Below are positions 3,573-58,341 of a stretch of DNA of 64,000 bases, piece after piece. Below the pieces are notes generated by a model, which worked only from the letters and a program-made list of their open reading frames with translations, had not been told where the DNA came from and ran no database searches. The position numbers and the translations under genes are program-made. Location of the stretch: contig CAZGYG010000003.1 in assembly GCA_964530335.1 (NCBI GenBank), forward strand, positions 23,792 to 87,791, written 5' to 3'. The stretch's first letter is position 1. Every line of letters starts with the position of its first letter. Source of the DNA: an uncultured Rhodospirillaceae bacterium (GTDB taxonomy: Bacteria > Pseudomonadota > Alphaproteobacteria > SP197).

Positions 3573-3582
3573 GCCCGATGCC

Positions 3583-4428
3583 ATGGGCAAGCTGATCTGG
3601 CTGGCGAGCTACCCGAAGTCGGGCAACACGTGGCTGCGCGCGTTCCTGCACAACCTGCTGCGCAACCCGGACCAGCCGTTCGACATCAACAACCTGCGCG
3701 CCTTCTGCGTGGTCGATTCGGTCGCCGAGCTCTACGCCCAGGTCGACCCGCGGCCGGCGACGGCGCTCGGCCCCGAAGGCGTGGCCCGGCTGCGCCCCAG
3801 CGTGCATCGCTTCATCACCACCGCCTCGGCCGACAACGTGTTCGTCAAGACGCACAACGCGATGCTCGACGACTTCGGCGTGCCGACTGTCACCGCCGAG
3901 GTCACCCAGGGCATGATCTACGTCGTGCGCAACCCGCTGGACGTGGCCGTGTCGTTCGCCCACCACCTCGGCGCCTCGCTCGACGACACGATCGCGCTGA
4001 TGAACCGGCCGGGGGCGCGCACGCCGATCACCGCCGAATGGGTCGGCGAGCTGATGGGATCTTGGTCGGAGAACGTGGCGAGCTGGACGGCCGAGCCCGG
4101 CCCGGCCCTGCACGTCGTGCGCTACGAGGACATGCACGCCCGGCCGATCACGACGTTCGGCGATGTCGCGCGCTTCCTCGGCCTCGATCCGCCGCGCGAG
4201 CGGATCGAAAAGGCGATCCGGCTGTCGTCGTTCCGCGTGCTGCGGGAGCAGGAACAGCGCCACGGCTTCATCGAGAAGAGCGTGGCCGCCGACCGGTTTT
4301 TCCGCGAGGGCAAGACCGGCGCCTGGCGCCAGGCGTTGAGCGCGGCCCAGGTCGCGGCGCTCAGCGAGGCGAACCGGACCCAGATGGCGCGCTTCGGCTA
4401 TGTGACCGAGGAGCCCAAGGATGAGTGA
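3583..4428 (+). CDS. PAPS-dependent sulfotransferase (SULT-like, paralog 4)
   Basis: MGKLIWLASYPKSGNTW, VKTHN, RNPLDVAVS; in frame with track ORF 3400..4428. Confidence 0.85.
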   Translation: MGKLIWLASYPKSGNTWLRAFLHNLLRNPDQPFDINNLRAFCVVDSVAELYAQVDPRPATALGPEGVARLRPSVHRFITTASADNVFVKTHNAMLDDFGVPTVTAEVTQGMIYVVRNPLDVAVSFAHHLGASLDDTIALMNRPGARTPITAEWVGELMGSWSENVASWTAEPGPALHVVRYEDMHARPITTFGDVARFLGLDPPRERIEKAIRLSSFRVLREQEQRHGFIEKSVAADRFFREGKTGAWRQALSAAQVAALSEANRTQMARFGYVTEEPKDE

Positions 4429-5104
4429 TGACGTCGCCGACAACCTGGCCGCGGTGAAGGCGCGTATCGCCGCCGCGGCCCGGGCCGCCGGCCGCGACCC
4501 TGACAGTGTCACGCTGGTCGCCGTCGCCAAGACCCACGGCCCGGAACGAATCCAGCCGGCGCTCGTCGCCGGGCACCGGGTGTTCGGCGAGAACCGGGTG
4601 CAGGAGGCGCGCGCCAAATGGCCGGCCTTGCGCGAGCATTACCCGGACCTTGTGCTGCACCTGATCGGGCCACTGCAGACCAACAAGGCGCGCGACGCGC
4701 TGGCCCTGTTCGACGTGATCGAATCGGTGGATCGGCCGCGGCTCGCCGAGGCGCTCGCCCGCGAGATCGAGCGCGGCGGGCGGCGACCGCGCTGCTTCGT
4801 CCAGGTCAACACCGGCGAGGAAGCGCAGAAGGCCGGCGTCGTGCCCGCCGAAGCCGACACGTTCATCGCCGCCTGCCGCGATGACTATGGCCTCGACGTG
4901 GCCGGGCTGATGTGCATCCCGCCCGCCGACGAGCCGCCGGCGCCGCACTTCGCCCTGCTCGCCAAGATCGCGGAGCGCCATGGGCTTTCCGGTCTCAGCA
5001 TGGGCATGAGCGCCGATTTCGAGACCGCGATCCGCTTCGGCGCGAGCCACGTGCGCATCGGCTCCGCCATCTTCGGCGCCCGCCCAACGCTGACGCGAGT
5101 CTAG
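4421..5104 (+). CDS. yggS: YggS-family pyridoxal-phosphate homeostasis protein (alanine-racemase N-terminal fold)
   Basis: 227 aa; the start overlaps the sulfotransferase stop by 8 nt; VAVAKTHG...FGENRVQE motif. Confidence 0.85.
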   Translation: MSDDVADNLAAVKARIAAAARAAGRDPDSVTLVAVAKTHGPERIQPALVAGHRVFGENRVQEARAKWPALREHYPDLVLHLIGPLQTNKARDALALFDVIESVDRPRLAEALAREIERGGRRPRCFVQVNTGEEAQKAGVVPAEADTFIAACRDDYGLDVAGLMCIPPADEPPAPHFALLAKIAERHGLSGLSMGMSADFETAIRFGASHVRIGSAIFGARPTLTRV

Positions 5105-5930: not shown

Positions 5931-8312
5931 TCAAGCGCGCAGGGCGGCGCGCTCGCTGAGTGCCTTGTCGAAGGCGGCGAGCCGCGCGAACGCGCGGCCG
6001 TAGACGCCGTCGGGCGGAAATCGGCCTTCGGCGTCCGGCCGCCCGGCCTTAAGGCCGCTCAGGTGCTCGATCGCGTCGTCGACCGACTCGATGCTCCAGA
6101 TGTGGAAGCGCCCGTCGTTCACCGCGGCCATGATGTCCTCGCGCAGCGTCAGGTTGCGCTCGTTCGACACCGGAATGAGGCAGCCCTGGGTACCGGTCAG
6201 GCCGCGTTCGTTGCAGGCGCGGAAGAAACCCTCGATCTTCTGGTTGACGCCGCCGATGGCCTGGACCTGGCCGATCTGGTTGACCGAGCCGGTAATCGCG
6301 AGATCCTGGCGCAGCGGCACCTCGGCCAGCGACGAAATGATCGCGCACAGCTCGGCCATCGAGGCGCTGTCGCCTTCGACGCCGTCGTAGTTCTGCTCGA
6401 ACGTGATCGAGGAGGTGAACGACAGCGGGAAACCGCGCGCGAACGTACCGCGCAGGAAGCCTTCGAGCCCGTAGACGCCCTTCTGCTGGATCGGCCCGCT
6501 GAGTTCGGTGAAGCGCTCGATATTGATGACGCCGTGGATGCCGACGTGCGAGCGGGCGGTGATGCGCACCGGCAGGCCGAAGGCGTGGTCGCCGGTCTCG
6601 AGATAGACAAGCCCGTTGACCTGGCCGATCACGCGGCCGGCGGTGTCGATCAGCGTCTCGCCCTTGAGGATGCTTTCCTGGCTGCGGTCCTCGAGGCGCG
6701 CGTTGCGCCGCCGGCGCTCGTCGAGCGCGCGGCGCACGTCGGCCACGGTGATGGTGTCGCCGGCGGTCTCCTCGACGTAGCGGCTGGCCTCGATCAGCAC
6801 GTCCTCGATCAACTCGAAGCGCGCCGACAGCTTGTCACGCTCGCCGGCCCAGCGCGCGCTTTGGCCCAGCAGCCGGTCGATCGCGCCGGCGTCGCAGCGC
6901 CGGTTGCATTGCTCGCGCGCCGAACGCTGGATCAATCGCGTGTAGGTCGCCACGTCGCCATCGGTGGCTTCCATGTCGGCGTCGATGTCGGCCTTGACCT
7001 TGAAGAACGTGATGAAGCTCGGGTCGGCGGCGAACACCTGGTAGTACCACTGCGGCGCGCCGACGATGACGACCAGCAGCTTCAACGGGATCGGCTTGGG
7101 CGTCGGCGTGCCCGCCATCGGCGCCGTGCCGATGCGGTGCAGCTCCTCGATGCGGATCTCGCGGTCGCGCAGCGCGGCCTTGAGGTACGTCCAGCTCTGC
7201 GGTTCCATCGCCAGGGATTCGGCGCGCAGCACCAGGAACCCGCCGTTCGCCTTGTGCAGGGCGCCGGAGTGGATCTGGGTGAAGTCGGTCTCGAGCGTGC
7301 CGTTCGCGATCCGGTACGTCATGGCGCCGAACAGGTTCTCGTAGGTCGGGTTCGGCTCGAGCACGACGGGCGGGTTGCGGCTGTCGCCGTTGTCGACCAG
7401 CACGTTGACCGCGTAGCGCAGGACCGCGCTCTCGTCGGGCGCCTCGTCCTCGGCGCCGGCGCGCTGGAACAGGTGCAGGTGCTCGATCACGTCGACGCGC
7501 ATCTCGGTCAGCCAGCGGCTCAGGCCCTTGAACCCGGCGAACTCGCTCTGCGCCGCGTCGAGCAGCGGCCCGATTGCCTCGTCGGCGATGCGATGGTTGA
7601 TCCCCGTGATGGACTCGCCGATCCGCGTTTCCGCGTGGCGCGCCTCGGTCCTGAGATCGTCGAGCAGCGGGTCGAGCGTGGCGATCGCGGCCTCGAGTGC
7701 GTGGCGCCGGTCGTCCGGCAGCTCGGCCAGGGCCTCGGCCGGCACGGGCTGGCCGTCCTCGCCGATCACGACGACGTTCAGGCCATGCGGCGTGCGCAGC
7801 ACGTCGAGTCCGCCCTCGCGCGCCCGTGACCGCACGGTGGCGAACCGTTCGTCCAGGCTGGCGCGCGCGGATTCGTTCACGGCGCGCACCTCGTCGACAT
7901 AGGCCTGACTGTTGAGCGAACGGGCGAGCGTGGCGGCGAGCTGGGGCACCAGCTCCGCCATGCGGTCACGGAACTTGCGGCCGAGTCCGGCCGGCAGGCG
8001 GTAGGGCTTGGGCCGCGATGGCCGGGCGAAGTTGTTGAGGTAGACCCAGTCGTCGACCGGGGGCAGCTTGGCGGCGAACGCCCGCAGATAGCCGAGCGTC
8101 GCATTCATTCGCCCCGTCTGGTTCTCGCCCAGGACGAACACGTTGAAGCCTTCGTGGCGGATGCCGAGCGCGAAGCGCAGCGCCTCGCGCGCGCGCTGGT
8201 GCGAGCCCAGGTCGAACACCTGGACGTCGTCGACGGCCCGGCCGTCGACCGTGATTCGATCCGCGAACGACGGCAGGCCGACGGCGTTTGTCTCCAGCGG
8301 CTTGATGGCCAA
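5931..8312 (-). CDS. Lon-like ATP-dependent protease (COG1067: AAA+ module plus Lon S16 proteolytic domain)
   Basis: C-terminal ...GDSASMAELCAIISSLAEVPLRQDLAITGSVNQIGQVQAIGGVNQKIEGF is a Lon protease domain. I place the start at TTG 8312 (reads LAIKPLETNA...) with a GGGGAGGG Shine-Dalgarno about 7 nt upstream. Track ORF 5931..8462 adds an Arg/Gly-rich 50-aa N-terminus that is probably not translated. Confidence 0.75.
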   Translation of the reverse strand: MAIKPLETNAVGLPSFADRITVDGRAVDDVQVFDLGSHQRAREALRFALGIRHEGFNVFVLGENQTGRMNATLGYLRAFAAKLPPVDDWVYLNNFARPSRPKPYRLPAGLGRKFRDRMAELVPQLAATLARSLNSQAYVDEVRAVNESARASLDERFATVRSRAREGGLDVLRTPHGLNVVVIGEDGQPVPAEALAELPDDRRHALEAAIATLDPLLDDLRTEARHAETRIGESITGINHRIADEAIGPLLDAAQSEFAGFKGLSRWLTEMRVDVIEHLHLFQRAGAEDEAPDESAVLRYAVNVLVDNGDSRNPPVVLEPNPTYENLFGAMTYRIANGTLETDFTQIHSGALHKANGGFLVLRAESLAMEPQSWTYLKAALRDREIRIEELHRIGTAPMAGTPTPKPIPLKLLVVIVGAPQWYYQVFAADPSFITFFKVKADIDADMEATDGDVATYTRLIQRSAREQCNRRCDAGAIDRLLGQSARWAGERDKLSARFELIEDVLIEASRYVEETAGDTITVADVRRALDERRRRNARLEDRSQESILKGETLIDTAGRVIGQVNGLVYLETGDHAFGLPVRITARSHVGIHGVINIERFTELSGPIQQKGVYGLEGFLRGTFARGFPLSFTSSITFEQNYDGVEGDSASMAELCAIISSLAEVPLRQDLAITGSVNQIGQVQAIGGVNQKIEGFFRACNERGLTGTQGCLIPVSNERNLTLREDIMAAVNDGRFHIWSIESVDDAIEHLSGLKAGRPDAEGRFPPDGVYGRAFARLAAFDKALSERAALRA

Positions 8313-8509
8313 ATCCAACCCTCCCCGTGGCGCGCGACCGAAGTCGATCCGACCACCGCCGCCCCGTCGCGTCAACGTAGCGCCCGGCCAAACCCGGTCA
8401 ACAGCTTTCGGGGCTCGCGCTTCTTGGGGCCCGCTCTGGCCCCGGCGCGGCCGTTGCGGCACAATGACCCGGTCCGGGGCGCGGTCCGGGCGGCGGAGAA
8501 ACCGGCTTC

Positions 8510-9199
8510 ATGGCGACCACCAAGGACATCCTGCTCGTCGACGACGACCAGACGCTGCGCGCGGCGCTGGCCGAACAGCTCCGCCTGCACGAGGAGTTCG
8601 CCGTGACCGAGGCGGACGGGGCGGCGCGCGCGCTCGACCTGGCGCGGTCCCAGCGCTTCGACCTGGTGCTGCTCGACGTCGGTCTGCCCGACATGGACGG
8701 GCGCGAGCTGTGCAAGGCCCTGCGCCGCGCCGGCCAGAAGATGCCGGTGATCATGCTGACGGCCGCCGTGGGCGAGGCCGACACCATCCTGGGGCTCGAT
8801 TCCGGCGCCAACGACTACGTCGCCAAGCCGTTCAAGCTGGGCGTCCTGCTGGCGCGCATCCGGGCGCAGTTGCGCGCCCACGAACAGAGCGAGGACGCCA
8901 CGTTCGTCATCGGCCCCTACAACTTCCACCCGGCGCAGAAGCTGCTGGTCCACAAGGACACGCAGAAGAAGGTGCGGCTCACCGAGAAGGAAACGGGGAT
9001 CCTCAAGTTCCTGCTGCGCTCGGGCGGGCAGCCGGTGGGGCGCGACGTGCTGCTCGACCAGGTATGGGGCTACAACGCCGCGGTCACCACCCACACGCTC
9101 GAGACACACATTTACCGCTTGCGCCAGAAGATCGAGCCCGACCCGTCGAACGCCACGCTGCTGATCACCGAGCTGGGCGGCTACCGGCTCAACCCGTGA
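8510..9199 (+). CDS. OmpR-family two-component response regulator (receiver plus winged-helix DNA-binding domain), orphan
   Basis: ILLVDDD...LVLLDVGLPDMDG receiver domain; C-terminal OmpR-like RLTEKE...YRLRQK. No histidine kinase in the window. Confidence 0.9.
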   Translation: MATTKDILLVDDDQTLRAALAEQLRLHEEFAVTEADGAARALDLARSQRFDLVLLDVGLPDMDGRELCKALRRAGQKMPVIMLTAAVGEADTILGLDSGANDYVAKPFKLGVLLARIRAQLRAHEQSEDATFVIGPYNFHPAQKLLVHKDTQKKVRLTEKETGILKFLLRSGGQPVGRDVLLDQVWGYNAAVTTHTLETHIYRLRQKIEPDPSNATLLITELGGYRLNP

Positions 9200-25371: not shown

Positions 25372-25544
25372 CTTCGCGCCTCCCCTCCCCGAAAAAGGCA
25401 CGCCGGCGGGGGACTATGCCACAGGGCTGGGCGGCGGGGCGAGTCTACCCGGGCGGGTCCCCGACCGGCCCCCAAGGCCCACTGTACCCCAGCGAAGCCC
25501 TGGGTTAAGGTGCCGAACCTTGCCGCGATGGCCGGTCGGGAGCC

Positions 25545-28208
25545 ATGGAACCAAGTATCCTTCGGTATATTTTCCGATTTTCAAAACGACAGCAAATACA
25601 AATTGTTATCATAACGGCAATCTCCCTGCCGTTCTATTATGCGTCCCTCGATGTTCCCAAGCTCATCGTAAATAATGCGTTAGACGGTGGCCCACAGGAT
25701 TTCCCAAAACCCTTCTCGGTGCTTGGGTATAACCTGATTGGTCTCGAGCAGGTGCCGCTGCTTTATGCGTTCTGCGCCCTGTTCCTGGTTCTCGTTTTGA
25801 TCAACGGCGCCTTCAAGTACTACATCAACGTCCAGAAGGGCATCCTGGGCGAGCGGATGCTGCGCCGGCTGCGCTTCCAGCTGCTCGCGCGCGTGCTGCG
25901 CTTCCCGCTGCCGCACTTCCGCCGGGTCAGTTCGGGCGAGATCATCCCGATGATCACCTCCGAGGTCGAGCCGCTCGGTGGCTACATCGGCGATGCCATC
26001 GTCCAGCCGCTCTACCAGGGCGGGCTGCTGCTGACCGCGATCTTCTTCATCTTCGCCCAGGACCTCTACATGGGCATCGCGGCCATCGCGCTCTACCCCG
26101 TGCAGGGCTATCTCATCCCCAAGCTGCAGCGCCGCGTCAACCTGCTCGGCAAGGAACGGGTACGCGAGGTGCGCAAGCTCTCCGAGCGCATCGCCGAGGC
26201 GACGGCGGTCGCCCAAGAGGTCCATGGCCACGACGCGGCGCGCTACGAGCTCGCGGACTTCGCCGTGCGCTTCGGGCGCATCTACCACATCCGCAACCGC
26301 ATCTTCATCCTCAAGTTCCTCGCCAAGTTCCTCAACAACTTCATCTCCCAATTGACGCCGTTCCTGTTCTTCTCGATCGGCGGCTACTTCGTCATCCAGG
26401 GCGGGCTCTCGCTCGGCGCGCTGGTCGCCGTGCTCGCCGCCTACAAGGACCTGCCAGGCCCGTGGAAGGAGCTGCTGGACTACTACCAGATCAAGGAGGA
26501 CTCCCGGATCAAGTACGAGCAGGTGGTCAGCCAGTTCGATCCGCCGGGCATGCGCGACGAGGCGCTCGTCGGCGGCGACCGCGACGATCCGCCGCCGCTC
26601 GCCGGTGCCCTCGAGGTCGCCAACCTCGGCCTCGCCGATGACGGCGACCAGATCCTCGAGAACGTCAGCCTCAAGGCGCCGCTCGGCTCGCGGCTCGCCC
26701 TGGTCGGGGACTCGGCCAGCGGCAAGACCGAGCTCACGCTGCTGCTGGCCCGGCTGCTCGATCCGTCCAAGGGTCGCGTCGTCGTGGGCGGCGTCGACCT
26801 CAAGGACGCGCCCGAGGCCCTGACCGGGCGGCGCATCGCCTACGTCGGCCCGACCACCAGCCTGCTGTCGGCGCCCCTCTTCGACAACCTGACCTACGGG
26901 CTCAAGCACCGCCCGCTCAAGGAGGTCGAGTACCTGGCGCCGACCGCGGTCCAGCAGCGCCGCCGCGACATCGTCGAGGCGGAGAAATCGGGCAACGCGC
27001 CCGACGACATCAACGCCGATTGGATCGATTACGCGGCGGCGGGCGTGACGCCCGAACGGCTGGTCGGCAGCATTGTCGCTGCCCTCGACGTCGCCGACAT
27101 GACCGGCGACGTCTACCAGTACGGGCTGCGCGGTACGCTCGACCCGGTGCTGCGCCCGGACGCGGCCAGGCGGGTGCTCGACGCCCGCGCCGCTCTGCCC
27201 GACCTGCTGGCCGATGCCGGGGTCGCCGACCTGGTCGAACCGTTCCACCCCGAACGCTACAACTCGAACGCCACCCTCGCCGAGAACCTGCTGTTCGGCA
27301 CGCCGCGCGGCGATACGTTCGCCTTCGATCGGCTGGCCGGCAACGCTTACGTGCGCAAGGTGCTCGACGACACCGGCCTGACCGGCGATCTGCTCGTCAT
27401 GGGCTACGAGGTGGCGCAGACGATGATCGAGCTGTTCGCCGATCTGCCGCCCGAGCACGAGTACTTCGCCCAGTTCAGCTTCATCCGGCTCGAGGACCTG
27501 CCGGACTTCCAGGCGATCGTGCGCAAGGCCGAGCCCGAACACCTGGACCGGCTTGCCGAGGGCGATCGGCTCAAGCTGCTGTCGCTGCCGTTCCAGCTCG
27601 TGCCGGCGCGCCACCGGCTGGGCAATATCGATGACGCGATGCGCGAACGGCTGCTGGTCGCGCGCCGCGCCTTCGCCGCCGGGCTGTCGGCCGCCGATCG
27701 CGGCGCCGTCGCCCTGTTCGACCCCGGCGCTTACAACGCGCACGCCTCGCTGCAGGACAACATCCTGTTCGGCAAGCAGGTCTACGGCAAGGCGCACGCC
27801 GCCCAGAAGATCGGCGATCTGATCTCGGATCTGGTCGCGACGTTCGGCCTGCGCGAGATCATCATCGAGGCGGGGCTTGACTATCCGGCCGGCATCGGCG
27901 GCACGCGCCTGACCCAGAGCCAGCGCCAGAAGCTGGCCATCGCGCGCGCTGTGCTCAAGCGCCCGGACGTGCTCATCCTCGGCGAGGCGACGGCGACGCT
28001 CGACGGCCCGGCCCAGGCGAACATCATGGCCAACTTGTTCAAGGCCTTCGAAGGGCGCACCTTGATCTGGGCGCTGCACCGGGCCAGCCTGGCCAAGGCG
28101 TTCGACCAGATCGTCGTGCTCAAGGGCGGCCGGGTCGTCCAGCACGGCACGTACGTGGAGCTTGCCGCCGCGCCCGGCGTCCTCGCCGACCTGGTGGCGG
28201 CCGAATAG
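25545..28208 (+). CDS. Atypical ABC exporter (N-terminal 6-TM domain plus ATPase domain carrying a roughly 350-aa insertion and degenerate motifs)
   Basis: Walker A GDSASGKTEL; signature region LTQSQRQKLAIARAVL (degenerate LSGGQ); Walker B VLILGEATATLD (Asp replaced by Gly); H-loop ALHR. First about 150 nt are markedly AT-richer than the surroundings. Confidence 0.8.
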   Translation: MEPSILRYIFRFSKRQQIQIVIITAISLPFYYASLDVPKLIVNNALDGGPQDFPKPFSVLGYNLIGLEQVPLLYAFCALFLVLVLINGAFKYYINVQKGILGERMLRRLRFQLLARVLRFPLPHFRRVSSGEIIPMITSEVEPLGGYIGDAIVQPLYQGGLLLTAIFFIFAQDLYMGIAAIALYPVQGYLIPKLQRRVNLLGKERVREVRKLSERIAEATAVAQEVHGHDAARYELADFAVRFGRIYHIRNRIFILKFLAKFLNNFISQLTPFLFFSIGGYFVIQGGLSLGALVAVLAAYKDLPGPWKELLDYYQIKEDSRIKYEQVVSQFDPPGMRDEALVGGDRDDPPPLAGALEVANLGLADDGDQILENVSLKAPLGSRLALVGDSASGKTELTLLLARLLDPSKGRVVVGGVDLKDAPEALTGRRIAYVGPTTSLLSAPLFDNLTYGLKHRPLKEVEYLAPTAVQQRRRDIVEAEKSGNAPDDINADWIDYAAAGVTPERLVGSIVAALDVADMTGDVYQYGLRGTLDPVLRPDAARRVLDARAALPDLLADAGVADLVEPFHPERYNSNATLAENLLFGTPRGDTFAFDRLAGNAYVRKVLDDTGLTGDLLVMGYEVAQTMIELFADLPPEHEYFAQFSFIRLEDLPDFQAIVRKAEPEHLDRLAEGDRLKLLSLPFQLVPARHRLGNIDDAMRERLLVARRAFAAGLSAADRGAVALFDPGAYNAHASLQDNILFGKQVYGKAHAAQKIGDLISDLVATFGLREIIIEAGLDYPAGIGGTRLTQSQRQKLAIARAVLKRPDVLILGEATATLDGPAQANIMANLFKAFEGRTLIWALHRASLAKAFDQIVVLKGGRVVQHGTYVELAAAPGVLADLVAAE

Positions 28209-51084: not shown

Positions 51085-54000
51085 CTACTCGGCCGCCTTG
51101 GGCAGGGCGACGGGTTCGCGGCGCGCGCGGCGGCGATCCCCGCGGCGCCGCAACCACGTCGCGAGATCGGCGCGCAGGACCAGCGCCGCCGGCGTGACCA
51201 CGAGGGTGAGCACGGTGGCGAACGTGAGCCCGATGCCGATGGCGCTGGCAAGCTGGGTCCACCACTGGGTCGCCGGTGCGCCGACGCTCACGTCGCGGCC
51301 GATGAAGTCGACGTTCACCCGGAACATCATGGGCAGCAGGCTGATGACGTTCGACCCGGCGGTCAGCATCACCGGGCGCAGGCGCTGCGCCCCGGTCTTA
51401 AGGATGGCCTCGCGCACCGTGGGCTCGGTCATCTTGAGCCGGTCGAAGGTGTCGATCAGCACGATGTTGTTGTTGACCACGATGCCGGCCAGCGCGATCA
51501 CCCCGATGCCGGTCATGACGATGCCGAACGGCTGGCCGGTGATGATCAACCCGACGAACACCCCGATCGTCGACATCACGACCGCCGAAAGGATCAGGAA
51601 CGTCGAGTAGAAGCTGTTGAACTGCGCCACCATGATGATGGTGATCAGGAACAGCGCGGCGGCGAACGCCTTGCCGAGGAAGGCCTCGGCGGCGAGCTGC
51701 TCCTCGTTCTCGCCCTTGAAGGCGACGGAAACGGCGGGGTCGAGCTCGGCCTCGTCGAGCCAGGCCTGGATCTCGCGCACCTTGTCGTCGACCAGGATGC
51801 CCGGCGCCACGTCGGCGCGCACGTGCAGCACGCGGCGGCCGTCGACCCGGTCGATCTGGCTAACGCGCGGCGCCGCGCGGCGCTCGACGAAGCCCTCGAG
51901 CGGCACGGCGATGCCCGCCGCGTTGACCATGCGCACCCGGTCGAGCCGGCTGATCGAGCGGTCCGCCTGGGGATAGCGGGCGCGGATGTCGATCTCGTCG
52001 TCGGCGTCGTCGGGCCGGTAGGTGCCGAACAGGATGCCGTTGGTGACGAGCTGGATGGCCTGGCCGACGTTGGCCACGTCGGCGCCGAACTTGGCGGCCT
52101 GGGCGCGATCGACCGCGAGCTCCCAGGTGATGCCGGGCGTCGCCCGGCTGTCCTCGATGTCGACCAGCCCGGGTATCGCCTCCATGGCGGCGCGCACGCG
52201 CGCCACCGCCGGTTCGAGCCGCGCCGGATCGCGCGCGGCGAGCTCCAGGTCGATCGGCTTGCCCACCGGCGGGCCGGCCTCCTGCTGGCGCGGCTCGACG
52301 ACGATGCCGGCCAGATCGCGGGTGCGTTCGCGCACCTCGGCCAGCACCTGGCTCGCGGGGCGGCGCTGGTCCCAGGGGCGGAACTCGAGCTGGATCAGCC
52401 CGATGATGTCCTCGGCGAGGTCCGAACCCTGGCCCTGCTGGCCGCTGCGCGCGTAGACCGAGGCAAGCTCGGGCATGTCGAGAATGCGCGCCTCGACCTC
52501 GCGCACCAGGGCGTCCTGCTCGTGCACGGAAAGATTGCCGCGGGCGTGGATCTGCAGCACCGCCAGGTCGGGCTCGACCTCGGGGAAGAACTCGACCCCA
52601 TTGCCGTGCAGCGCGTAGTAGCCCTGGATGCCGACCAGGGCGACGACGGCACCGAACACGACCAGGGCCGGGCGGCGCAACGCACGGTCGAGCACGCGCA
52701 CGTAAAACCCGGTCGCGCCACCGAGCGCGCGCAGGTCCATCTTCTCGTCGGCGGCGAGCGCCTGCAGGGTCAGCCCGCCGTGGACCGCCGGCCGGCCGAA
52801 GATCGAGCCGAGCGTCGGCGTGAACAGGAGCGCGATCAGGACCGAGGCGGCGAGGGTCGCGATGAGCGTCAGCGGCATGTAGTACATGTACTCGCCGACC
52901 ACGCCGGGCCAGAACATGAGCGGCACGAACGCGGCGAGCGTCGTCGCGGTGCCGGCGACGATCGGCCCGGACATGCGCTTGGCCGCCAGCCCGTAGGCCG
53001 CGCGCCGGCCCACGCCTTCGGCCATCTTCCGCTCGGCGTACTCGGTGACGATGATCGCGCCGTCGACCAGCATGCCGAGCGCCAGGATCAGGCTGAACAG
53101 GACGACGACGTTGATGGTCAGCCCCATGGCGGCCAGCACCAGGATGCCGGCCAGGAACGACGACGGCACCGCGAAGCCGACCAGCGCCGCCGAACGCCAG
53201 CCCAGCGCCGCGACGACGACCACCCCCAGCAGCACGATGCCGCTGATCAGGTTGTTCTGCAGGTCGAGCAGCATGTCGCGGATGTTCACCGATTCGTCCT
53301 GCAGGTAGTTGACCGCGACGCCCGGCGGCCAGGTCGCGCGCTCGGCCTCGACCACGGCGCGCACCCGCTCGATCGTCTCGATGATGTTCTCGCCGCTGCG
53401 CTTGACGACCTCGATCGCCAGCGCCGGGCGGCCGTCGACCCGGGCGAAGCCGGTCGGATCCTTGAAGGTGCGGCGCACGGTCGCGATGTCGCCGACCGTG
53501 ACCACCGCGTCGCCGCGCACGACCACGGGCATGGTCAGGATGTCCCGGACCGTCTCGAACAGGCCGGGAATCTTGATCGCGAAGCGGCCGGCGCCGGTAT
53601 CGAGCGCGCCGGCGGCGACCAGCCGGTTCGAGCGCGCCACGGCGTTGACGATGTCGTTGCCCGAAATCCGGTAGCTCTCGACGCGCAGCGGGTCGATCTC
53701 GACCTCGACCAGCTCCTCGCGCTCGCCCGCGATCTCGGCCTTGAGCACACTCGGGATGCCTTCGATGGCGTCCTCGAGGTCGTGCGCGAGGCGCAGCAGC
53801 GTGCGCTCGGGCACGTCGCCCGCGAGCGTCACCACCAGGACGGGGAACAGGCTCAGGTTGATCTCGTTGACCGTCGGCTCGTCGGCGTCCTCGGGCAGCT
53901 CGGCCTTGGCGATATCGACCTTCTCGCGCACGTCGGCGAGCGCCTGGTCGACGTCCTGGCCGGCCCAGAATTCGAGGATCACGTTGGCGCCGCCCTCGAA

Positions 54001-54255
54001 CGCGGTCGAGCGCATCTCCTTGATGCCCTCGATCGACGCCAGCTCCTGCTCCATGGGCTTGACCAGCAGGCGCTCGGCGTCGCCGGGCGAGATGCCTTCG
54101 TGGGCCAGCGACACGTAGATGGTCGGGATGACGATGTCCGGATCCGATTCCTTCGGGATGCGGTCGTAGGCGTAGGCCCCCGCCGCCAGGATCAGCAGAA
54201 AGGCGAACACGACCAGCCGGCGCCGGTCGAGCGCGGCGTCGATCAGCCAGCTCAT
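51085..54255 (-). CDS. RND efflux transporter permease (AcrB/HAE1 family)
   Basis: 1056 aa, 12-TM RND architecture; ATGA overlap with the adaptor stop. Confidence 0.9.
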   Translation of the reverse strand: MSWLIDAALDRRRLVVFAFLLILAAGAYAYDRIPKESDPDIVIPTIYVSLAHEGISPGDAERLLVKPMEQELASIEGIKEMRSTAFEGGANVILEFWAGQDVDQALADVREKVDIAKAELPEDADEPTVNEINLSLFPVLVVTLAGDVPERTLLRLAHDLEDAIEGIPSVLKAEIAGEREELVEVEIDPLRVESYRISGNDIVNAVARSNRLVAAGALDTGAGRFAIKIPGLFETVRDILTMPVVVRGDAVVTVGDIATVRRTFKDPTGFARVDGRPALAIEVVKRSGENIIETIERVRAVVEAERATWPPGVAVNYLQDESVNIRDMLLDLQNNLISGIVLLGVVVVAALGWRSAALVGFAVPSSFLAGILVLAAMGLTINVVVLFSLILALGMLVDGAIIVTEYAERKMAEGVGRRAAYGLAAKRMSGPIVAGTATTLAAFVPLMFWPGVVGEYMYYMPLTLIATLAASVLIALLFTPTLGSIFGRPAVHGGLTLQALAADEKMDLRALGGATGFYVRVLDRALRRPALVVFGAVVALVGIQGYYALHGNGVEFFPEVEPDLAVLQIHARGNLSVHEQDALVREVEARILDMPELASVYARSGQQGQGSDLAEDIIGLIQLEFRPWDQRRPASQVLAEVRERTRDLAGIVVEPRQQEAGPPVGKPIDLELAARDPARLEPAVARVRAAMEAIPGLVDIEDSRATPGITWELAVDRAQAAKFGADVANVGQAIQLVTNGILFGTYRPDDADDEIDIRARYPQADRSISRLDRVRMVNAAGIAVPLEGFVERRAAPRVSQIDRVDGRRVLHVRADVAPGILVDDKVREIQAWLDEAELDPAVSVAFKGENEEQLAAEAFLGKAFAAALFLITIIMVAQFNSFYSTFLILSAVVMSTIGVFVGLIITGQPFGIVMTGIGVIALAGIVVNNNIVLIDTFDRLKMTEPTVREAILKTGAQRLRPVMLTAGSNVISLLPMMFRVNVDFIGRDVSVGAPATQWWTQLASAIGIGLTFATVLTLVVTPAALVLRADLATWLRRRGDRRRARREPVALPKAAE

Positions 54256-55307
54256 GGCGCCGCGACGGCCGTGACGCGCTGGCCCGCGCTCACGTACTCC
54301 TGTCCGACCACGATCACCGTGGCGCTGGGCGCGAGCCCGGTGATCCAGACGCCCTCGGGCCCGTCGCCGACCAACGCGACCGGGTGAAAGGCGACCAGGC
54401 CGTCCGCTTCGACGGTCTTGACGCCGACCGTGCCGTCGTCGGCCAGCGTGAGCACGGCGGGCGAGAGGAGGTGCGCGGGCACGGCGTCGGTGGCCAGCTC
54501 GAGCTCGGCGGTGACGCCGGCGGCGATCGCGCCCCTTGGGTTGGCGACCTCGAGCTCGACGCGGAAGGTGTGGGTCGCCGGGTCCGCGACGCGGCCGATG
54601 TAGCGAATCCGGCCCTCGACGGTCTGCCCGGTGATCAGGCGCGCGACCGCGCTCTCGCCGACGACGAACCGGCCGGCGTCGCGTTCGGTGATCTCGGCCG
54701 CGACCAGGATCGGGTCGAGATCGACGACGTAGGCGACGGCGTCGCCGACGCGAACGAAATCGCCGACCTCGACGTCGCGGCGCTCGACGACGCCGTCGAA
54801 CGGCGCCCGCAAGCTGGTCCGCGCCAGGTCGAGCTCGATGGCGGCGAGCTCGGCCTCGGCCTCCTTGGCGTCCGCCGCCATCTCCGCCGTGCGCACCTCG
54901 GTCTGGTAGCCCTGGCTCATCAGGGTCAGCGCGGCGTCGAGCTCGATGGTCCGCTGCTCCAGCCGCGCCCGGGCCTCGGCCAGGCGTGCCGGGCGGTCGT
55001 CCTCGGCCAGGCGCGCGATCGGCTCGCCGGCGGCGATGCCCGCGCCCTCCGCCGCCAGGATCTCGGCGACGTGGCCCTCGGTCTCGGCGCGCACCACGAC
55101 GGCGCGCGACGGCTCGGTGCGACCCAGCACCGCGATCGCTTCGGCGCGCGGCAAGGCTTGCGACACCCGGACGCGGACTTCCGGCAGTGGGGCTTCGGCG
55201 GGCGCAGCGACGCTCGCGGTCCGCGACGACGAGGTGAACTCACCCGAGGCGACCCACAGCGCGGCCGCCACGGCCAGGAAGAACGCGAGCACGATGGACT
55301 TGTTCAT
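54252..55307 (-). CDS. RND efflux periplasmic adaptor (membrane fusion protein)
   Basis: Start at ATG MNKSIVLAFFLAVAAALWVASG (signal anchor); coiled-coil plus beta-barrel adaptor pattern. Confidence 0.85.
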   Translation of the reverse strand: MNKSIVLAFFLAVAAALWVASGEFTSSSRTASVAAPAEAPLPEVRVRVSQALPRAEAIAVLGRTEPSRAVVVRAETEGHVAEILAAEGAGIAAGEPIARLAEDDRPARLAEARARLEQRTIELDAALTLMSQGYQTEVRTAEMAADAKEAEAELAAIELDLARTSLRAPFDGVVERRDVEVGDFVRVGDAVAYVVDLDPILVAAEITERDAGRFVVGESAVARLITGQTVEGRIRYIGRVADPATHTFRVELEVANPRGAIAAGVTAELELATDAVPAHLLSPAVLTLADDGTVGVKTVEADGLVAFHPVALVGDGPEGVWITGLAPSATVIVVGQEYVSAGQRVTAVAAP

Positions 55308-55447
55308 GGGCCCCGTCGCTGGGTCGCGGGCTAGGCCGGCCGGCCCCCGCCTATCTCCCGGCGTGGCTGACCGGCCGAGGAAACGCCGAGGAAACATAGT
55401 GTCGCGGCCGGGGTCGCGCCACCCCGGCCGCTACGCCCGCGCCGGGG

Positions 55448-55621
55448 TCAGAGCGGGCGCGAGCGGAGGTCGAACAGGATGCCCCTGGCGGCCAGTCCGA
55501 TCTGCTCGCGACCAAGCCCGATGTCGGCGAGCAGCCGATCGGACAGGCCTTCGAGTTCCGCGCGCGCCCGACGCGAGCGGTGCCAGTCGCGAACCCGGCG
55601 TAGCATGGCAAGTGCCAGCAT
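55448..55621 (-). CDS. DUF1127-domain small protein (57 aa)
   Basis: MLALAMLRRVRDWHRSRRARAELEGLSDRLLADIGLGREQI matches the Trp/Arg-rich DUF1127 signature; GGGAG Shine-Dalgarno 8 nt upstream of the ATG. Confidence 0.55.
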   Translation of the reverse strand: MLALAMLRRVRDWHRSRRARAELEGLSDRLLADIGLGREQIGLAARGILFDLRSRPL

Positions 55622-55675
55622 GATGATATCTCCCACGTTTTGGCGGGGATCCGAACCCTGCGTCCGATCCCGTTG

Positions 55676-55700
55676 TGTGGGATAATGTGGTTAATTGTGG
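55676..55700. promoter_or_regulatory. Three direct repeats (A/T)(A/T)TGTGG at exactly 10-bp spacing (TTGTGTGG GATAATGTGG TTAATTGTGG) upstream of the DUF1127 gene
   Basis: Seen in sequence; helical-phase periodicity; AT-richer context; 55-80 bp upstream of the small-protein start. Confidence 0.5.
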
Positions 55701-55740
55701 TTTTTGCAGTAGCGATATTGCAGCGCAACAGATATGCGTT

Positions 55741-56643
55741 TTACGCATACTTCGCTTCGTCGAAATCGTGCCCGGTGAGCCGTGCGAAGGCCTCGAGGTA
55801 GCGGCTTCGAGTGCCCACGACCACGGACTCGGGCAGCGCCGGGCCAGGGGCCGCCTTGTTCCAGCCGCGCGGCCCTTCGAGCCAGTCGCGCAGGAACTGC
55901 TTGTCGAACGACGGCGGGGTGTCGCCCGGCGTGACCGCGTCGGCCGGCCAGAAGCGCGAGCTGTCGGGCGTCAGCGCCTCGTCGACCAAGGTGATGGCGC
56001 CGTCGATCAGGCCGAACTCGAACTTGGTGTCGGCGATCGCGATGCCGCGCTCCTCCGCGTATCGCGCGGCCCGGCCGTAAAGCGCGAGCGTGAGCTCGGC
56101 GAGTTGGGACGCGGTGGCCCGGCCGAGCGCCTCGACCATGGTCGCGAACGGCACGTTCTGGTCGTGACCGGATGTTGCCTTGGTGGCCGGCGTGAACACC
56201 GGGTTCGGCAGCCGGTCGGCGTGCCGCAACCCGCCCGGCAGGGGCACGCCGCAGATCGCGCCGCTTGCTTGGTAGTCCTTCCAACCGCTGCCGGCGAGCC
56301 AGCCGCGCGCGACGCACTCGAAGGGGAACACCCGGGCCTTGCGCACCACCAGGGCGCGGCCGGCCAGCAGCGCGCGTTCGTCCGCGTCGAGGTCCATGCC
56401 GGCAAGGTCCTCGCCGACGACGTGGTTCGGCGCCACGTCCGCCAGCAGGCGGAACCAGAACAGGCTGAGTTGGGTGAGTATTCGCCCCTTGTCGGGGATC
56501 GGCGTCGGCATGACCACGTCGAATGCGCTGATGCGGTCGGTCGCCACGATCAGCAGCCGGTCGCCCAGATCGTACAGATCTCGTACCTTGCCGCGCCCGA
56601 TCAGCGGCACGCGGCGCAACGCCGTCTCGAACACCGCGCTCAC
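55741..56643 (-). CDS. purC: Phosphoribosylaminoimidazole-succinocarboxamide synthase (SAICAR synthetase)
   Basis: LIGRGKVRDLYDLGDRLLIVATDRISAFD signature; GTG start with GGAGAGGA Shine-Dalgarno. Confidence 0.9.
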   Translation of the reverse strand: MSAVFETALRRVPLIGRGKVRDLYDLGDRLLIVATDRISAFDVVMPTPIPDKGRILTQLSLFWFRLLADVAPNHVVGEDLAGMDLDADERALLAGRALVVRKARVFPFECVARGWLAGSGWKDYQASGAICGVPLPGGLRHADRLPNPVFTPATKATSGHDQNVPFATMVEALGRATASQLAELTLALYGRAARYAEERGIAIADTKFEFGLIDGAITLVDEALTPDSSRFWPADAVTPGDTPPSFDKQFLRDWLEGPRGWNKAAPGPALPESVVVGTRSRYLEAFARLTGHDFDEAKYA

Positions 56644-56943
56644 GATCCGTCCTCTCCAGGCACGACGAAGTGTCGATCCAAACAGGCGCCGCGCGCACAA
56701 GGGCGCGGATGCGTCCGCCCTGTCAAGCTCGATGGGCGCGCACCGCCGCGGCCAGTTCTTGTGAAATCAGGCCCCAAGAAATCTGGCGATTTGTGCGGCG
56801 CACACAATCAGAATTTAGATATGCGCGTCATGCATAGAATGAACTCGCGCCTTGCGGTCCTGGCGCCTCGGCCACGCCTGACCAGTACTTGCCAGAGCCC
56901 CTGGCGCGGGCCACCTTGGGCGTGATCCACCAGGGAATCGGTC

Positions 56944-57672
56944 ATGCGCATTCTCGTGATTCAGAACAACGCCAAGAGCGAGCTCGGCGCGATCGGCGAG
57001 GTGACCCTGCGGCGGCGGGTCGAGACCGTGCTCAACGACGCCGATCGCGGCGATCCGACGCCCGGCGATGATCGCGGCTTCGACGGGCTCCTGGTGCTCG
57101 GGGGCGCGATGAACGCCGACGAGCACGAGGCATTCCCGCACTTGCCCGAGACCGTCCGCCTGATCCACCAGTTCCACGGGGCCGCCAAGCCGATCATCGG
57201 CATCTGCCTCGGCGGCCAGCTGCTCGCGCGGGCGTTCGGCAAGCCGGTGCACCGGCATGGCGGTCACGAGCGGGGCTTCAGGCAACTGCGCAAGACCGCG
57301 GCGGCCGCGACCGATCCCCTGCTCCGCGACATGCCCGACGAGCTCCAGCTTTTCCAGTTCCACGAGGACACCTTCGAAGTGCCCGACCGTGCCGCCCACC
57401 TCCTGACCGGCGAGTTGCCCAACCAGGGCTTTCGGGTCGGCGACTCGACCTGGGGGTTCCAGTGCCACTTCGAGATCACCGAGGCGCTTTGGCGCTCGTG
57501 GCACGACGTGAGCCGCGACTACATCGCGCGCGTCGACCCCGACTTCACCCGGCGCATGGCGGCGGACATGCCGCGCTACATGGCCGGCAGCCGTGAGTTT
57601 TGCCACCGGGTGACCGAACGGTGGCTCGACCTGGTGGCGGAACGGCGCGTCCCGTTGGCCGCCGGCGCGTAG
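56944..57672 (+). CDS. Class I glutamine amidotransferase-like protein
   Basis: GICLGGQLL catalytic-Cys motif. Confidence 0.8.
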   Translation: MRILVIQNNAKSELGAIGEVTLRRRVETVLNDADRGDPTPGDDRGFDGLLVLGGAMNADEHEAFPHLPETVRLIHQFHGAAKPIIGICLGGQLLARAFGKPVHRHGGHERGFRQLRKTAAAATDPLLRDMPDELQLFQFHEDTFEVPDRAAHLLTGELPNQGFRVGDSTWGFQCHFEITEALWRSWHDVSRDYIARVDPDFTRRMAADMPRYMAGSREFCHRVTERWLDLVAERRVPLAAGA

Positions 57673-57687
57673 CTTGCCGGGCCGGAT

Positions 57688-58341
57688 TCACGCGGCGCCG
57701 GCGTAACCGGCGTAGTGCGTAATGTAATAGGCCGCGTCGTTGGCGATGGCGCGCACCGAGGCGCGGTCCGCCATGGCGGCCATCCAGGCCCGCAGGCGCC
57801 GGCACTCGGCGGGCACCTCGATGCCACGGTAATGCCGCCACGCCGGCAGCCGCTCGAAGAATGGATAGTAGGCGAAGTCGACGAGCGTCGGCGTGGCGCC
57901 GAGCCAGTAAGGCCCGTCGCCGTTGCGCGCCATGCCGTCGCGCTCGATGGTCAAGAGTCGACGCTCGATGCCCCCGCGCAGCTCCGCCGCCTTGGCCGCG
58001 TCCTGCTCCTTGAGCAGGGCGTAATGCTCGTCGAGCGTCTGGTTGTCGAGGTAGTCGATCCAGACGCGCACGAGCGCGCGCAGGCCGGGCTGCGTCGGCA
58101 TCAAGGCCGGCGCGGGGAACGTCTCGTCCAGGTACTCGTTGATGATCGCGCTCTCGTAGACGACGGTCGTGCCGTGCACCAGGGCCGGCACCCGGCCGTA
58201 GGGCGAGACCGCCAGGAAGCGCGCCGGCTTGTTCTTGAAGTCGATCTCGGTCAGCCGGGCCTCGACGCCCTTCTCCAGCAGCACCAGCCGGGTGCGATGA
58301 GCGAACGGGCAGATGCGCGCGGTGAACAACTCGATGGACAT
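57688..58341 (-). CDS. Glutathione S-transferase
   Basis: MSIELFTARICPFAHRTRLVL GST N-terminal thioredoxin-like motif; GGAGG Shine-Dalgarno. Confidence 0.85.
   Translation of the reverse strand: MSIELFTARICPFAHRTRLVLLEKGVEARLTEIDFKNKPARFLAVSPYGRVPALVHGTTVVYESAIINEYLDETFPAPALMPTQPGLRALVRVWIDYLDNQTLDEHYALLKEQDAAKAAELRGGIERRLLTIERDGMARNGDGPYWLGATPTLVDFAYYPFFERLPAWRHYRGIEVPAECRRLRAWMAAMADRASVRAIANDAAYYITHYAGYAGAA

Follow-up and report, generated by a model that had tools for sequence, protein, structure and literature searches.

Three TGTGG direct repeats, phased at 10 bp, precede a small gene in the stretch of DNA analysed here (64 kb, referred to as the window), and an earlier note had taken them for a classic PhoB/OmpR-type activator arrangement. 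The questions raised by this locus are whether the gene is genuine, from which promoter it would be transcribed, and what the repeats represent.

The first question can be answered plainly: a genuine DUF1127 small-protein gene is located after purC. The 57-aa ORF runs from ATG to TGA on the minus strand (55621..55448), and its product matches Pfam PF06568 (DUF1127, YjiS-like) with an E-value of 4e-11 and 42.9 bits (curated gathering cut-off, 23.3 bits), the match spanning profile positions 2–36 of 37. An alternative in-frame GTG start at 55636 would give 62 aa. The gene and its ribosome-binding site are as follows.

55448..55621, minus strand: DUF1127 small-protein ORF (MLALAMLRRVRDWHRSRRARAELEGLSDRLLADIGLGREQIGLAARGILFDLRSRPL), identified by the Pfam match, the identical public product and the orthologues
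55629..55634, minus strand: Shine-Dalgarno sequence GGGAGA, read directly, 7 nt 5' of the ATG

The earlier note had named both the DUF1127 ORF and its good Shine-Dalgarno sequence, and both identifications are confirmed, the former also by the 57-aa orthologues and the invariant family core described below. Its supposition that the ORF had escaped gene callers is wrong for public data, where the identical 57-aa product has already been called on seven Logan/JGI contigs, each with a PF06568 match. Of its description of the product as Trp/Arg-rich, the arginine part holds (12 of 57 residues) and the tryptophan part does not, the only Trp being the invariant W13.

A word-index homologue search with the DUF1127 protein returned one near-identical relative only, and a purC scan of genome contigs was swamped by the 50–61% identical purC genes of unrelated phyla. 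The orthologues were found via purC homologues and the contigs carrying them. Specifically, the gene order purC–DUF1127–MFP–RND is kept in nine orthologous loci of an uncultured alphaproteobacterial lineage (purC identity 71–77%), and the placement of the small gene, after purC and ahead of the RND efflux operon, is fixed. The ORF is 57 aa long in all eight orthologues with a complete reading; the ninth (L146) is truncated by the contig end and was left out of this count. Eighteen columns are invariant across the orthologues, including W13, R17, E22-L23, L26, D28-R29, L31, D33-I34-G35-L36, R38 and Q40-I41, and the Shine-Dalgarno sequence is GGAG or GGAGA at an unchanged distance from the start.

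The product resembles CcaF1 of R. sphaeroides, YjiS of Salmonella and E. coli, and SDP1-3 of A. tumefaciens in being short and Arg-rich with a W...R...L.D..L.DIG..R core, and the gene, like the characterised DUF1127 genes, is small and stands alone with a promoter and a terminator of its own. No second DUF1127 gene is present in the window. Rfam scans, permissive over 54000–58000 and at the gathering threshold over the entire window, yielded no credible family and no riboswitch, AbcR or CcsR-type sRNA. Unlike in CcaF1–CcsR, the gene is not followed by an sRNA cluster with an Rfam match and, unlike in S. meliloti duf1127-1, a uORF attenuator is not evident in the leader of ~55 nt. A DUF1127 protein was reported to interact with the sensor kinase PhoR (PMC12501420), and RNA binding by a DUF1127 protein is described in PMC8034643. 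The product studied here would be expected to resemble the characterised family in binding to PhoR or to RNA.

To describe the region upstream of the gene, the following features are needed.

55725..55748, minus strand: palindrome ATGC-N7-GCAT (55748-55734, a T-N11-A motif) and box GCAT-ATC-TG-TTG-C (55737-55725), matching a published box and conserved
56821..56835, minus strand: second copy of the palindrome and box (ATGCATGACGCGCAT-ATC-TA-AAT-T), in the GATase–purC intergenic region
55711..55715, minus strand: TCGCT, at about -40..-36 just 5' of the -35, invariant in nine of nine orthologues
55704..55709, minus strand: predicted weak -35 CTGCAA, agreeing with TTGACA at three of six positions, with a 16-nt spacer; (C/G)TGCAA in the orthologues
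55676..55700, minus strand: three phased CCACA pentamers (boxes 1 to 3; 55700-96, 55690-86 and 55680-76), unique in the window and partly conserved
55682..55687, minus strand: predicted -10 hexamer CATTAT, in the conserved column block CCAcATa.t
55674..55676, minus strand: predicted transcription start site (TSS), 6–8 nt 3' of the conserved -10

Generic scans of 55200–56000 for sigma-70 promoters and for terminators gave no match at threshold, and both elements were recognised by comparative alignment alone. Transcription most likely begins near 55675 at a weak sigma-70-type promoter (CTGCAA, 16 nt, CATTAT). The -10 reads CATAAT in the strain variants L081 and L085 and also in L088 and L095; among near-identical strains there are four intergenic substitutions, one of which brings the -10 closer to TATAAT. 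We infer the TSS and the sigma factor, as well as the identities of both regulators considered below, from the sequence. The conserved blocks do not fit, by eye, the sequences of EcfG (GGAAC-N16-CGTT), sigma-54 (TGGCAC-N5-TTGC) or RpoH (CTTGAA-N16-CCTATAT) promoters. Nor is there conservation of a CtrA site (TTAA-N7-TTAA) or of GANTC methylation sites.

Two hairpins complete the predicted transcript.

55646..55671, minus strand: 5'-UTR stem-loop (GGGATCGGA / TCGGATCCC), seen as an inverted repeat and in the MFE fold, 3–5 nt after the predicted TSS
55390..55431, minus strand: intrinsic-terminator-like hairpin with an 11-bp GC stem (55431-55404) and a weak U-rich tail, 17 nt past the stop codon

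The terminator hairpin folds with -33.7 kcal/mol, and every orthologue has a strong hairpin of differing sequence followed by CC(U/C)UAUCUUU; the terminator is conserved as a structure. A hairpin of different sequence also occupies the equivalent leader position in most orthologues, most clearly in L088 and L095; the 5'-UTR hairpin of the window by itself is not significant (z=-0.98) and is a weakly supported feature. The locus would be a self-contained transcription unit consisting of a promoter, a leader of ~55 nt, the 57-codon ORF and an intrinsic terminator.

The repeats themselves are non-random and partly conserved in relatives. On the plus strand, TGTGG occurs at 55676-80, 55686-90 and 55696-700, i.e. 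55–79 nt 5' of the DUF1127 ATG and with a spacing of exactly 10 bp, as had been claimed; the additional (A/T)(A/T) prefix applies to two units and fails in the third. A search of the window found the triple here only, even with one mismatch allowed, and it appeared in none of 100 dinucleotide shuffles. The CCACA-N5-CCACA pair likewise has no second occurrence in the window. The AT-rich island is real: the GC content is 33% in the 30-nt repeat block and 41% in the 73-nt promoter block relative to 71% in the window, and the repeat region is the second most AT-rich 60-mer in the window. In the orthologues, box 1 is present in nine of nine and box 2 in eight of nine, with a variable spacer between them, and the strain-level substitutions miss the pentamers. 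Boxes 1 and 2 are under sequence constraint. Box 3 is retained in the window lineage with L085, in L146 and in L096, with differing spacers, and is absent from L088, L095, L094, L145 and L097; five of the eight lineages outside the window clade have just two boxes.

Relative to the predicted TSS, boxes 1, 2 and 3 are at -25..-21, -15..-11 and -5..-1, which places the repeats inside the predicted core promoter (about -25 to -1). The conserved -10 is within the repeats, and the orthologue alignment contains no conserved -10-like element downstream of the block; this prediction rules out an upstream or -35 position for the repeats as an activator site. Box 2 would partly coincide with the upstream edge of the -10, and the three repeats would lie on one helix face across the core promoter. 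Any protein reading them would block RNA polymerase and act as a repressor or modulator layered over activation from elsewhere by a LysR-type protein, as discussed below; a repressor-type operator at the repeats is possible. The remaining concern of the earlier note, that the repeats might be an unconserved remnant of the purC terminator, is ruled out by their partial conservation in relatives, which is as primary sequence, and no hairpin forms over them.

The upstream site that is conserved is of another kind: apart from its last base, it matches the box of the LysR-type regulator VtlR/LsrB, which is known to activate DUF1127 small-protein genes directly and also has AbcR-type sRNAs as targets. 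The published VtlR box is GCAT-N3-TG-N3-T, and VtlR directly activates the small-protein gene atu1667 of A. tumefaciens (PMC7486931). In Brucella, VtlR positively regulates three DUF1127 proteins through the motif CAATGCAGCCATGCA (PMC12595884), which is the reverse complement of the VtlR/LsrB-type box. The box begins with the 3' arm of the palindrome, and the purC stop codon TAA is within the palindrome spacer. The GCAT-N3-TG core (GCAT-ATC-TG at 55737-55729 in the window) is found in nine of nine orthologues with TG or AG as the dinucleotide. The last base is C (55725) in the window, L088, L095, L094, L097, L145 and L146, and the published T in L096, L098a/b, L106, L115 and L107.

In an anchored alignment of 17 promoters, comprising the orthologues, the paralogous promoter ahead of purC, the two L098 DUF1127 genes and unrelated metagenomic DUF1127 genes, the consensus was (C/T)ATGC-N7-GCAT-N3-(T/A)G, with a -10-like hexamer 48–50 nt later in each. 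Given a TSS at ~55675, the box is predicted at about -62..-50 and the palindrome plus box at about -73..-50. The S. meliloti promoter PabcR1 has its box at -61..-49, upstream of CTTGAC-N17-CTATAT (PMC8844928), and the 48–50 nt from GCAT to the predicted -10 equal the spacing in PabcR1. ATGC-N7-GCAT occurs at two sites in the 64 kb, both flanking purC. In relatives, the second site is followed, at an equivalent distance from the box, by TTGCAA-N17-TATCTT and then a conserved 45-aa ORF, or by a second DUF1127 gene in L098; a search for the 45-aa ORF in the window did not find it, and the window lineage is without it. In the 200-nt upstream regions of 33 unique DUF1127 genes, GCAT-N3-(T/A)G was 4.7-fold enriched (13 observed, 2.8 expected, P=7e-6), a P value that is optimistic since many of these promoters are interrelated. 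A DUF1127 gene on a Phyllobacterium plasmid, taken as a Rhizobiales comparator, has no GCAT box in its upstream gap of ~110 nt and was uninformative. A tblastn search with E. coli OxyR found no LysR-type gene in the 64-kb window.

The best explanation, to which we give slightly more than an even chance, is that the gene has a weak sigma-70-type promoter near 55675 that depends on a LysR activator of the VtlR/LsrB kind, and that the repeats are not an upstream activator site. The activator would bind ATGC-N7-GCAT and the adjoining N3-TG, over the purC stop codon. The arrangement resembles the Rhizobiales VtlR/LsrB targets (atu1667 and B. abortus bab1_0914, bab2_0512 and bab2_0574) in having a DUF1127 gene as the target, and shares with these and with PabcR1 the GCAT-N3-TG within a T-N11-A palindrome, the predicted sigma-70-type promoter with a weak -35 and the small, presumably monocistronic unit. 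It differs from these systems in the C for the final T of the 13-nt box, in the fixed position of the gene between purC and the RND efflux operon, and in the host, which has 71% GC and belongs to an uncultured alphaproteobacterial lineage that is not known as Rhizobiales, the order in which VtlR/LsrB has been described. The phased CCACA boxes and the invariant TCGCT also set it apart from the other VtlR-box DUF1127 promoters compared; TCGCT is missing from these and from the paralogous promoters. The LysR model by itself accounts for neither feature, and TCGCT is possibly a promoter-proximal LysR sub-site. The locus would then belong to a known regulon as a largely ordinary member, with one extra, the phased repeats.

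For this extra, several readings were weighed. The repeats may lack a regulator of their own, box 1 being a promoter-proximal LysR sub-site, box 2 an extended -10 (CCACATAAT) and box 3 a product of chance or of a 10-bp slippage duplication; this is possible, though we would not expect it. Because the -10 of other VtlR-box DUF1127 promoters is CCATAT or CATATT, the 'CCA..AT' part of the conserved block is partly promoter sequence. The three 10-nt units share 60–80% identity, as a local duplication would give, and the absence of box 3 from five lineages fits as well. Read as GTGG-GATAAT-GTGG-TTAATT-GTGG at 55677-55700 on the plus strand, the block is a GTGG-N6-GTGG-N6-GTGG triple, of which at least one is expected by chance per genome (~2.7 per 5 Mb at the base composition of the window); only one was present in 769 kb of fetched DNA. 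Against this reading, box 3 persists in the window, L146 and L096, three lineages that are divergent and in which its spacers differ. LysR footprints seldom extend as far as -1. Furthermore, the paralogous promoters with an equal upstream box have no CCAC at box 1, so box 1 is no general requirement of the LysR activator.

Alternatively, the three phased boxes may be the operator of MraZ or of another oligomeric protein that reads one box per helical turn, with repression by covering -25..-1, a reading that we regard as unlikely. The geometry fits: the plus-strand site GTGGGATAATGTGGTTAATTGTGG at 55677-55700 has three GTGG boxes with six-nucleotide gaps, the 10-bp period of MraZ operators, and extends over the promoter and TSS region as they do. 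The Pmra operator of E. coli K-12 (AGTGGGAAATTGTGGGGCAAAGTGGGAAT, taken from the genome) shares this geometry and the AT-rich spacers. In the mraZ promoters of Rhizobium and Shinella, four boxes with a 10-bp period are placed as here, antisense and overlapping the -35 and -10, and in L146 all three boxes persist despite different spacers, i.e. short cores are conserved and flanks are variable. However, the boxes of these two promoters, the only alphaproteobacterial mraZ promoters compared, are (T/G)CCCA(T/A) with the core TGGG/CCCA and not GTGG/CCAC, and among the three window boxes a single one (GTGGG) contains TGGG. Universal conservation is limited here to two of the three boxes, the frequency of two-box lineages and the chance supply of triples given above count against an operator, and known MraZ operators are at the dcw promoter, whereas this site is at a DUF1127 promoter. 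Neither the window nor any orthologous locus fetched contains mraZ. MraZ-type repression can coexist with LysR activation. That the GTGG boxes function as an MraZ-type operator away from the dcw cluster, and that the DUF1127 gene is under dual control, switched on by a VtlR/LsrB-type LysR protein and off by MraZ, is a doubtful proposal.

It is very unlikely that the pentamers form the core of DnaA boxes (TTATCCACA) and that DnaA thereby represses the gene or times its expression. Window box 2, TTAACCACA, agrees with the DnaA consensus at eight of nine positions, and box 1 of L094, L145, L097 and L096, A(A/T)ATCCACA, at seven or eight of nine. With one or two mismatches and a conserved TTAT flank as the standard, window boxes 1 and 3 fall short at six of nine each; the four bases needed in a DnaA box 5' of CCACA vary at box 2 and in no case begin with TT at box 1. 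We know of no DnaA array with 9-mers at 10-bp spacing.

The original proposal took the repeats for an activator site of a PhoB/OmpR-type response regulator, possibly the one encoded at 8510–9199, with the gene turned on under phosphate or carbon limitation. OmpR-family activator sites are located at or upstream of the -35, and Pho boxes are sense-strand pairs of CTGTCAT-like 7-nt repeats whose period is 11 bp. Roughly helical-phase direct repeats near a promoter are shared with such sites, but the repeats here lie inside the predicted core promoter, with the conserved -10 among them, and are TGTGG pentamers, three in number, antisense and with a 10-bp period. CenR, an alphaproteobacterial OmpR-type regulator, recognises TGA-N8-TGA and has its activating sites upstream of the -35, and the conserved upstream site here is the VtlR/LsrB-type LysR box. 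Tandem direct repeats are bound by OmpR-family regulators, ArcA being cited for three (PMC9275681). DUF1127 proteins are functionally tied to the PhoR–PhoB system, but the published link is post-translational, not transcriptional (PMC12501420). The window does encode an OmpR-type regulator at 8510–9199, with Response_reg and Trans_reg_C domains; nothing links this gene to the repeats, from which it is 46 kb away, and it is absent from the orthologous loci as fetched, each limited to a few kb surrounding the DUF1127 gene. An OmpR-family protein acting on the repeats as a repressor is possible; as an activator site they are most improbable.

The outcome is a testable map of the promoter of a small gene in a family with emerging functions (modulation of PhoR, binding of RNA). 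In the core promoter of this gene, the conserved phased boxes provide a compact test case for targets of MraZ-type or other helical-phase binders outside canonical operons. Should the doubtful dual-control reading be true, it would be the first case in Alphaproteobacteria of a conserved MraZ target outside dcw that comparative genomics has defined, and a redox- or metabolism-sensing LysR activator would be set against the cell-division regulator MraZ at a gene that lies ahead of an RND efflux operon and belongs to a family able to modulate PhoR or RNA turnover. If the model of a LysR-dependent promoter is correct, the VtlR/LsrB–DUF1127 link reaches beyond cultured Rhizobiales to an uncultured high-GC lineage and several marine metagenomic clades, and would support an ancient, sequence-predictable regulon marked by ATGC-N7-GCAT-N3-TG ~49 nt before the -10.

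The locus around the three repeats is encoded mainly on the minus strand of the window, and its features are as follows.

Class-I glutamine amidotransferase gene, 56944–57672, upstream of purC and divergent from it
purC, 55741–56643 (stop codon 55743–55741), minus strand, long type of ~300 aa
Gap between purC and the small ORF, 119 nt, minus strand
DUF1127 ORF, 55621–55448, minus strand, 57 codons, Pfam DUF1127 match
Gap between the small ORF and the RND efflux pair, 140 nt, minus strand
Membrane-fusion protein of the RND efflux pair, running to 54252, minus strand (fusion protein and pump region, 51085–55307)
RND pump, 51085–54255, minus strand

The small ORF matches Pfam DUF1127 with an E value of 4e-11, far over the curated cut-off, and its ATG lies 7 nt downstream of the Shine-Dalgarno sequence GGGAGA. 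This match and the conservation in relatives bear out the DUF1127 identity proposed in the earlier note. The description of the protein as Trp/Arg-rich holds for Arg (12 of 57 residues) and fails for Trp (a single residue). The gene was also said to be unannotated by gene callers, but the exact 57-aa product is present in public gene calls with a DUF1127 Pfam match.

The host is an uncultured alphaproteobacterium, and several metagenome assemblies from Logan and JGI contain near-identical strains (contigs L081–L087). Further lineages were reached via purC homologues: eight with purC identities of 71–77% (L088–L093, L094, L095, L096, L097, L145 and L146; L094 is an NCBI MAG labelled ‘Alphaproteobacteria bacterium’) and one at 64% (L098). 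The order purC, 57-aa DUF1127 gene, fusion protein and RND pump is kept in the 71–77% lineages where the contig permits. This synteny, the 49–58% identity of the orthologous DUF1127 proteins to the window protein and their invariant DUF1127 core indicate that the gene is real and conserved. As for purC itself, the closest homologues outside its own lineage are just ~60–64% identical and belong to unrelated phyla, including Planctomycetota and Acidobacteriota, a sequence pattern that suggests an unusual evolutionary history or sparse lineage sampling.

When the purC–DUF1127 spacers are aligned, their primary sequence is conserved over one block, beyond which the similarity ends abruptly. The elements of the block, 5' to 3' on the gene strand, are listed below.

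Element 1, (C/T)ATGC-N7-GCAT-(A/G)NC-(T/A)G
Element 2, ~14 nt, variable
Element 3, TCGCT, invariant
Element 4, (C/G)TGCAA
Element 5, A(A/T)-CCAC(A)
Element 6, five or six bases, variable
Element 7, CCACAT(A/T)AT

The predicted −10 hexamer is CATTAT (55687–55682, minus strand), and transcription would start at ~55675, 6–8 nt past it. The predicted −35 element, CTGCAA, is weak, as expected if the promoter depends on an activator. The block has a GC content of 41% in a window of 71%, in agreement with the AT-rich surroundings noted earlier for the repeats. Across the window, AT content peaks in a 60-mer with 30% GC (25541–25640) that is not intergenic; a long ORF (25545–28208, MEPSILRYIFRFSKRQQIQIVIITAI...) has its 5' end there. 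Downstream of the block the sequences diverge; a hairpin is still possible at the same place in most lineages, most clearly in L088 and L095, and each orthologous leader has a GGAG-type ribosome-binding site. In every lineage, the DUF1127 stop codon is followed by a strong GC-rich hairpin of differing sequence and then CC(U/C)UAUCUUU, a predicted intrinsic terminator that is conserved in structure. The gene would be a small independent transcription unit consisting of the promoter, a leader of ~55 nt, the ORF and the terminator.

The ATGC-N7-GCAT palindrome at the upstream end of the block is a T-N11-A motif, the generic signature of LysR-type regulators, and its 3' arm opens with GCAT-N3-TG. 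For the alphaproteobacterial LysR-type regulator VtlR (LsrB in rhizobia), the published box is GCAT-N3-TG-N3-T, confirmed for Brucella abortus and proposed for Agrobacterium tumefaciens. In A. tumefaciens, VtlR directly activates atu1667, whose Brucella orthologues are the small proteins BAB1_0914 and BAB2_0512 (PMC7486931). VtlR ‘predominantly’ regulates three DUF1127 proteins and AbcR2 in Brucella melitensis, and the motif quoted for it, CAATGCAGCCATGCA, reads GCAT-GGC-TG-CAT-T on the opposite strand (PMC12595884). The Sinorhizobium meliloti promoter PabcR1 carries the box at −61 to −49, upstream of the sigma-70 signature CTTGAC-N17-CTATAT, and deletion of the box lowered promoter activity more than 22-fold (PMC8844928). 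The GCAT of the window starts 50 nt upstream of CATTAT, which places the box at a closely similar −62 to −50 relative to the predicted start. The GCAT to −10 spacing is 48–50 nt in all DUF1127 orthologues, in the paralogous promoter that precedes purC in relatives (TTGCAA-N17-TATCTT), at both DUF1127 genes flanking purC in L098 and at unrelated marine-metagenome DUF1127 genes. Within 200 nt upstream of 33 unique metagenomic DUF1127 genes, GCAT-N3-(T/A)G is enriched 4.7-fold (13 found, 2.8 expected; P = 7e-6, an optimistic value because some of the loci are related to one another). The final T of the 13-nt VtlR box is C in the window, and the 64-kb window contains no LysR gene. All regulatory assignments here are inferred from conserved sequence and from consensus motifs in the literature; in the best-supported one, the DUF1127 gene would be driven by a VtlR/LsrB-type LysR-dependent promoter.

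ATGC-N7-GCAT occurs at just two sites in the 64-kb window, both intergenic and flanking purC. The second box, ATGC-N7-GCAT-ATC-TA (56821–56835, minus strand), is located between the amidotransferase gene and purC. The equivalent site in relatives (L088 ~3500–3830, L094, L096, L097 and L098 2328–2794) lies ahead of a good promoter, TTGCAA-N17-TATCTT, then a long leader and a 45-aa ORF that is conserved and lacks a Pfam match (MSMAIGLLGFFGAATAGR...). A second DUF1127 gene occupies this ORF slot in L098, and the window lineage has kept the box and lost the ORF. Two other metagenomic clades (L111, L116, L117, L122 and L131; L124, L126 and L137) have CAATGCTGCAATGCA upstream of DUF1127, identical to the Brucella motif at 13 of 15 positions and opposite in orientation to the window-locus box.

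The three TGTGG pentamers are present with exactly 10-bp spacing, as first described (55676–55680, 55686–55690 and 55696–55700); no other such triple exists in the window, and none arose in 100 dinucleotide shuffles. On the sense strand they form CCACA boxes 1, 2 and 3 at about −25 to −21, −15 to −11 and −5 to −1 from the predicted start, which would place them inside the core promoter. Box 1 (CCAC) is invariant in 9/9 orthologues and box 2 is kept in 8/9, with most positions of the spacer between them variable. The window lineage, L096 and L146 have box 3 (in L146 the spacers differ: TCCACA-CGAT-ACCACA-TAGT-CCCACA); L088/L095 and L094/L145/L097 lack it. Among near-identical strains, all four intergenic substitutions fall outside the pentamers, one of them changing CATTAT to CATAAT. 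These patterns argue that at least two of the boxes are constrained, and the −10 itself accounts for part of the box 2 conservation. Box 1 is not simply a requirement of LysR activation, because CCAC is missing at that position from promoters that share the upstream LysR box and precede a different gene. Separately, L094 (~4925–4955), L097 and L145 have an inverted repeat, GTGGAT-N14-ATCCAC, around the −35 region (ACGTGGATTTCGCT(A/G)GTGCAA(T/A)ATCCAC), which adds CCAC copies in the opposite orientation; L094 carries a full ATCCACGTGGAT palindrome.

The phased, partly conserved short boxes are the feature left over; a helical-phase binder, MraZ for example, may use them as an operator. The plus strand reads GTGG-GATAAT-GTGG-TTAATT-GTGG. 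In Bacillus subtilis the MraZ repeat, GTGG[A/T]G, has a 4-nt spacer and occurs only once in the genome; the Escherichia coli K-12 operator in the genome sequence is AGTGGGAAATTGTGGGGCAAAGTGGGAAT, downstream of the −10 and ahead of the mraZ start codon. For an alphaproteobacterial box, we inspected the mraZ promoters of Rhizobium laguerreae (L141 803–836) and a Shinella MAG (L142 788–821). In each, ~170–215 nt ahead of the annotated mraZ start codon, four (T/G)CCCA(T/A) boxes recur exactly every 10 bp on the antisense strand and overlap both the TTGACG −35 and the −10. They are presumably the alphaproteobacterial MraZ operator, and their placement and orientation are strikingly like those of the three window boxes of the same period. 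Their core is, however, TGGG and not GTGG; since TGGG is found in just one of the three window boxes (GTGGG), the likeness is one of geometry, and at this base composition 5 Mb would be expected to contain ~2.7 GTGG-N6 triples by chance. We regard an MraZ operator as unlikely. DnaA boxes are a weaker alternative, as one pentamer scores 8/9 and two 6/9 and the flanks are not conserved.

The PhoB/OmpR-type activator site proposed in the earlier note is unsupported, as the pentamers would lie in the core promoter with box 2 abutting the −10. The upstream-activator reading is not rescued, because the orthologue alignments contain no conserved −10-like element downstream of the repeats. Pho boxes have an 11-bp period; the window repeats do not fit them in period (10 bp), core, orientation (antisense) or number of units (odd). 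The alphaproteobacterial OmpR-type regulator CenR activates from sites upstream of the −35 and represses from sites overlapping the promoter (PMC9275681), and the known link between DUF1127 and Pho is a protein–protein interaction with PhoR, not transcriptional control by PhoB (PMC12501420). The OmpR-type response regulator gene of the window (8510–9199, plus strand) adjoins a divergent gene for a Lon-like protease with a LonB-type AAA domain (5931–8462, minus strand).

In orthologous loci on long enough contigs, the DUF1127 gene is always followed by the membrane-fusion protein and the RND pump. DUF1127 genes of S. meliloti were reported as the most strongly induced after tetracycline exposure (PMC12218461). 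Kept despite the gene's own conserved terminator, the linkage of DUF1127 to the RND genes may reflect read-through or shared regulation.
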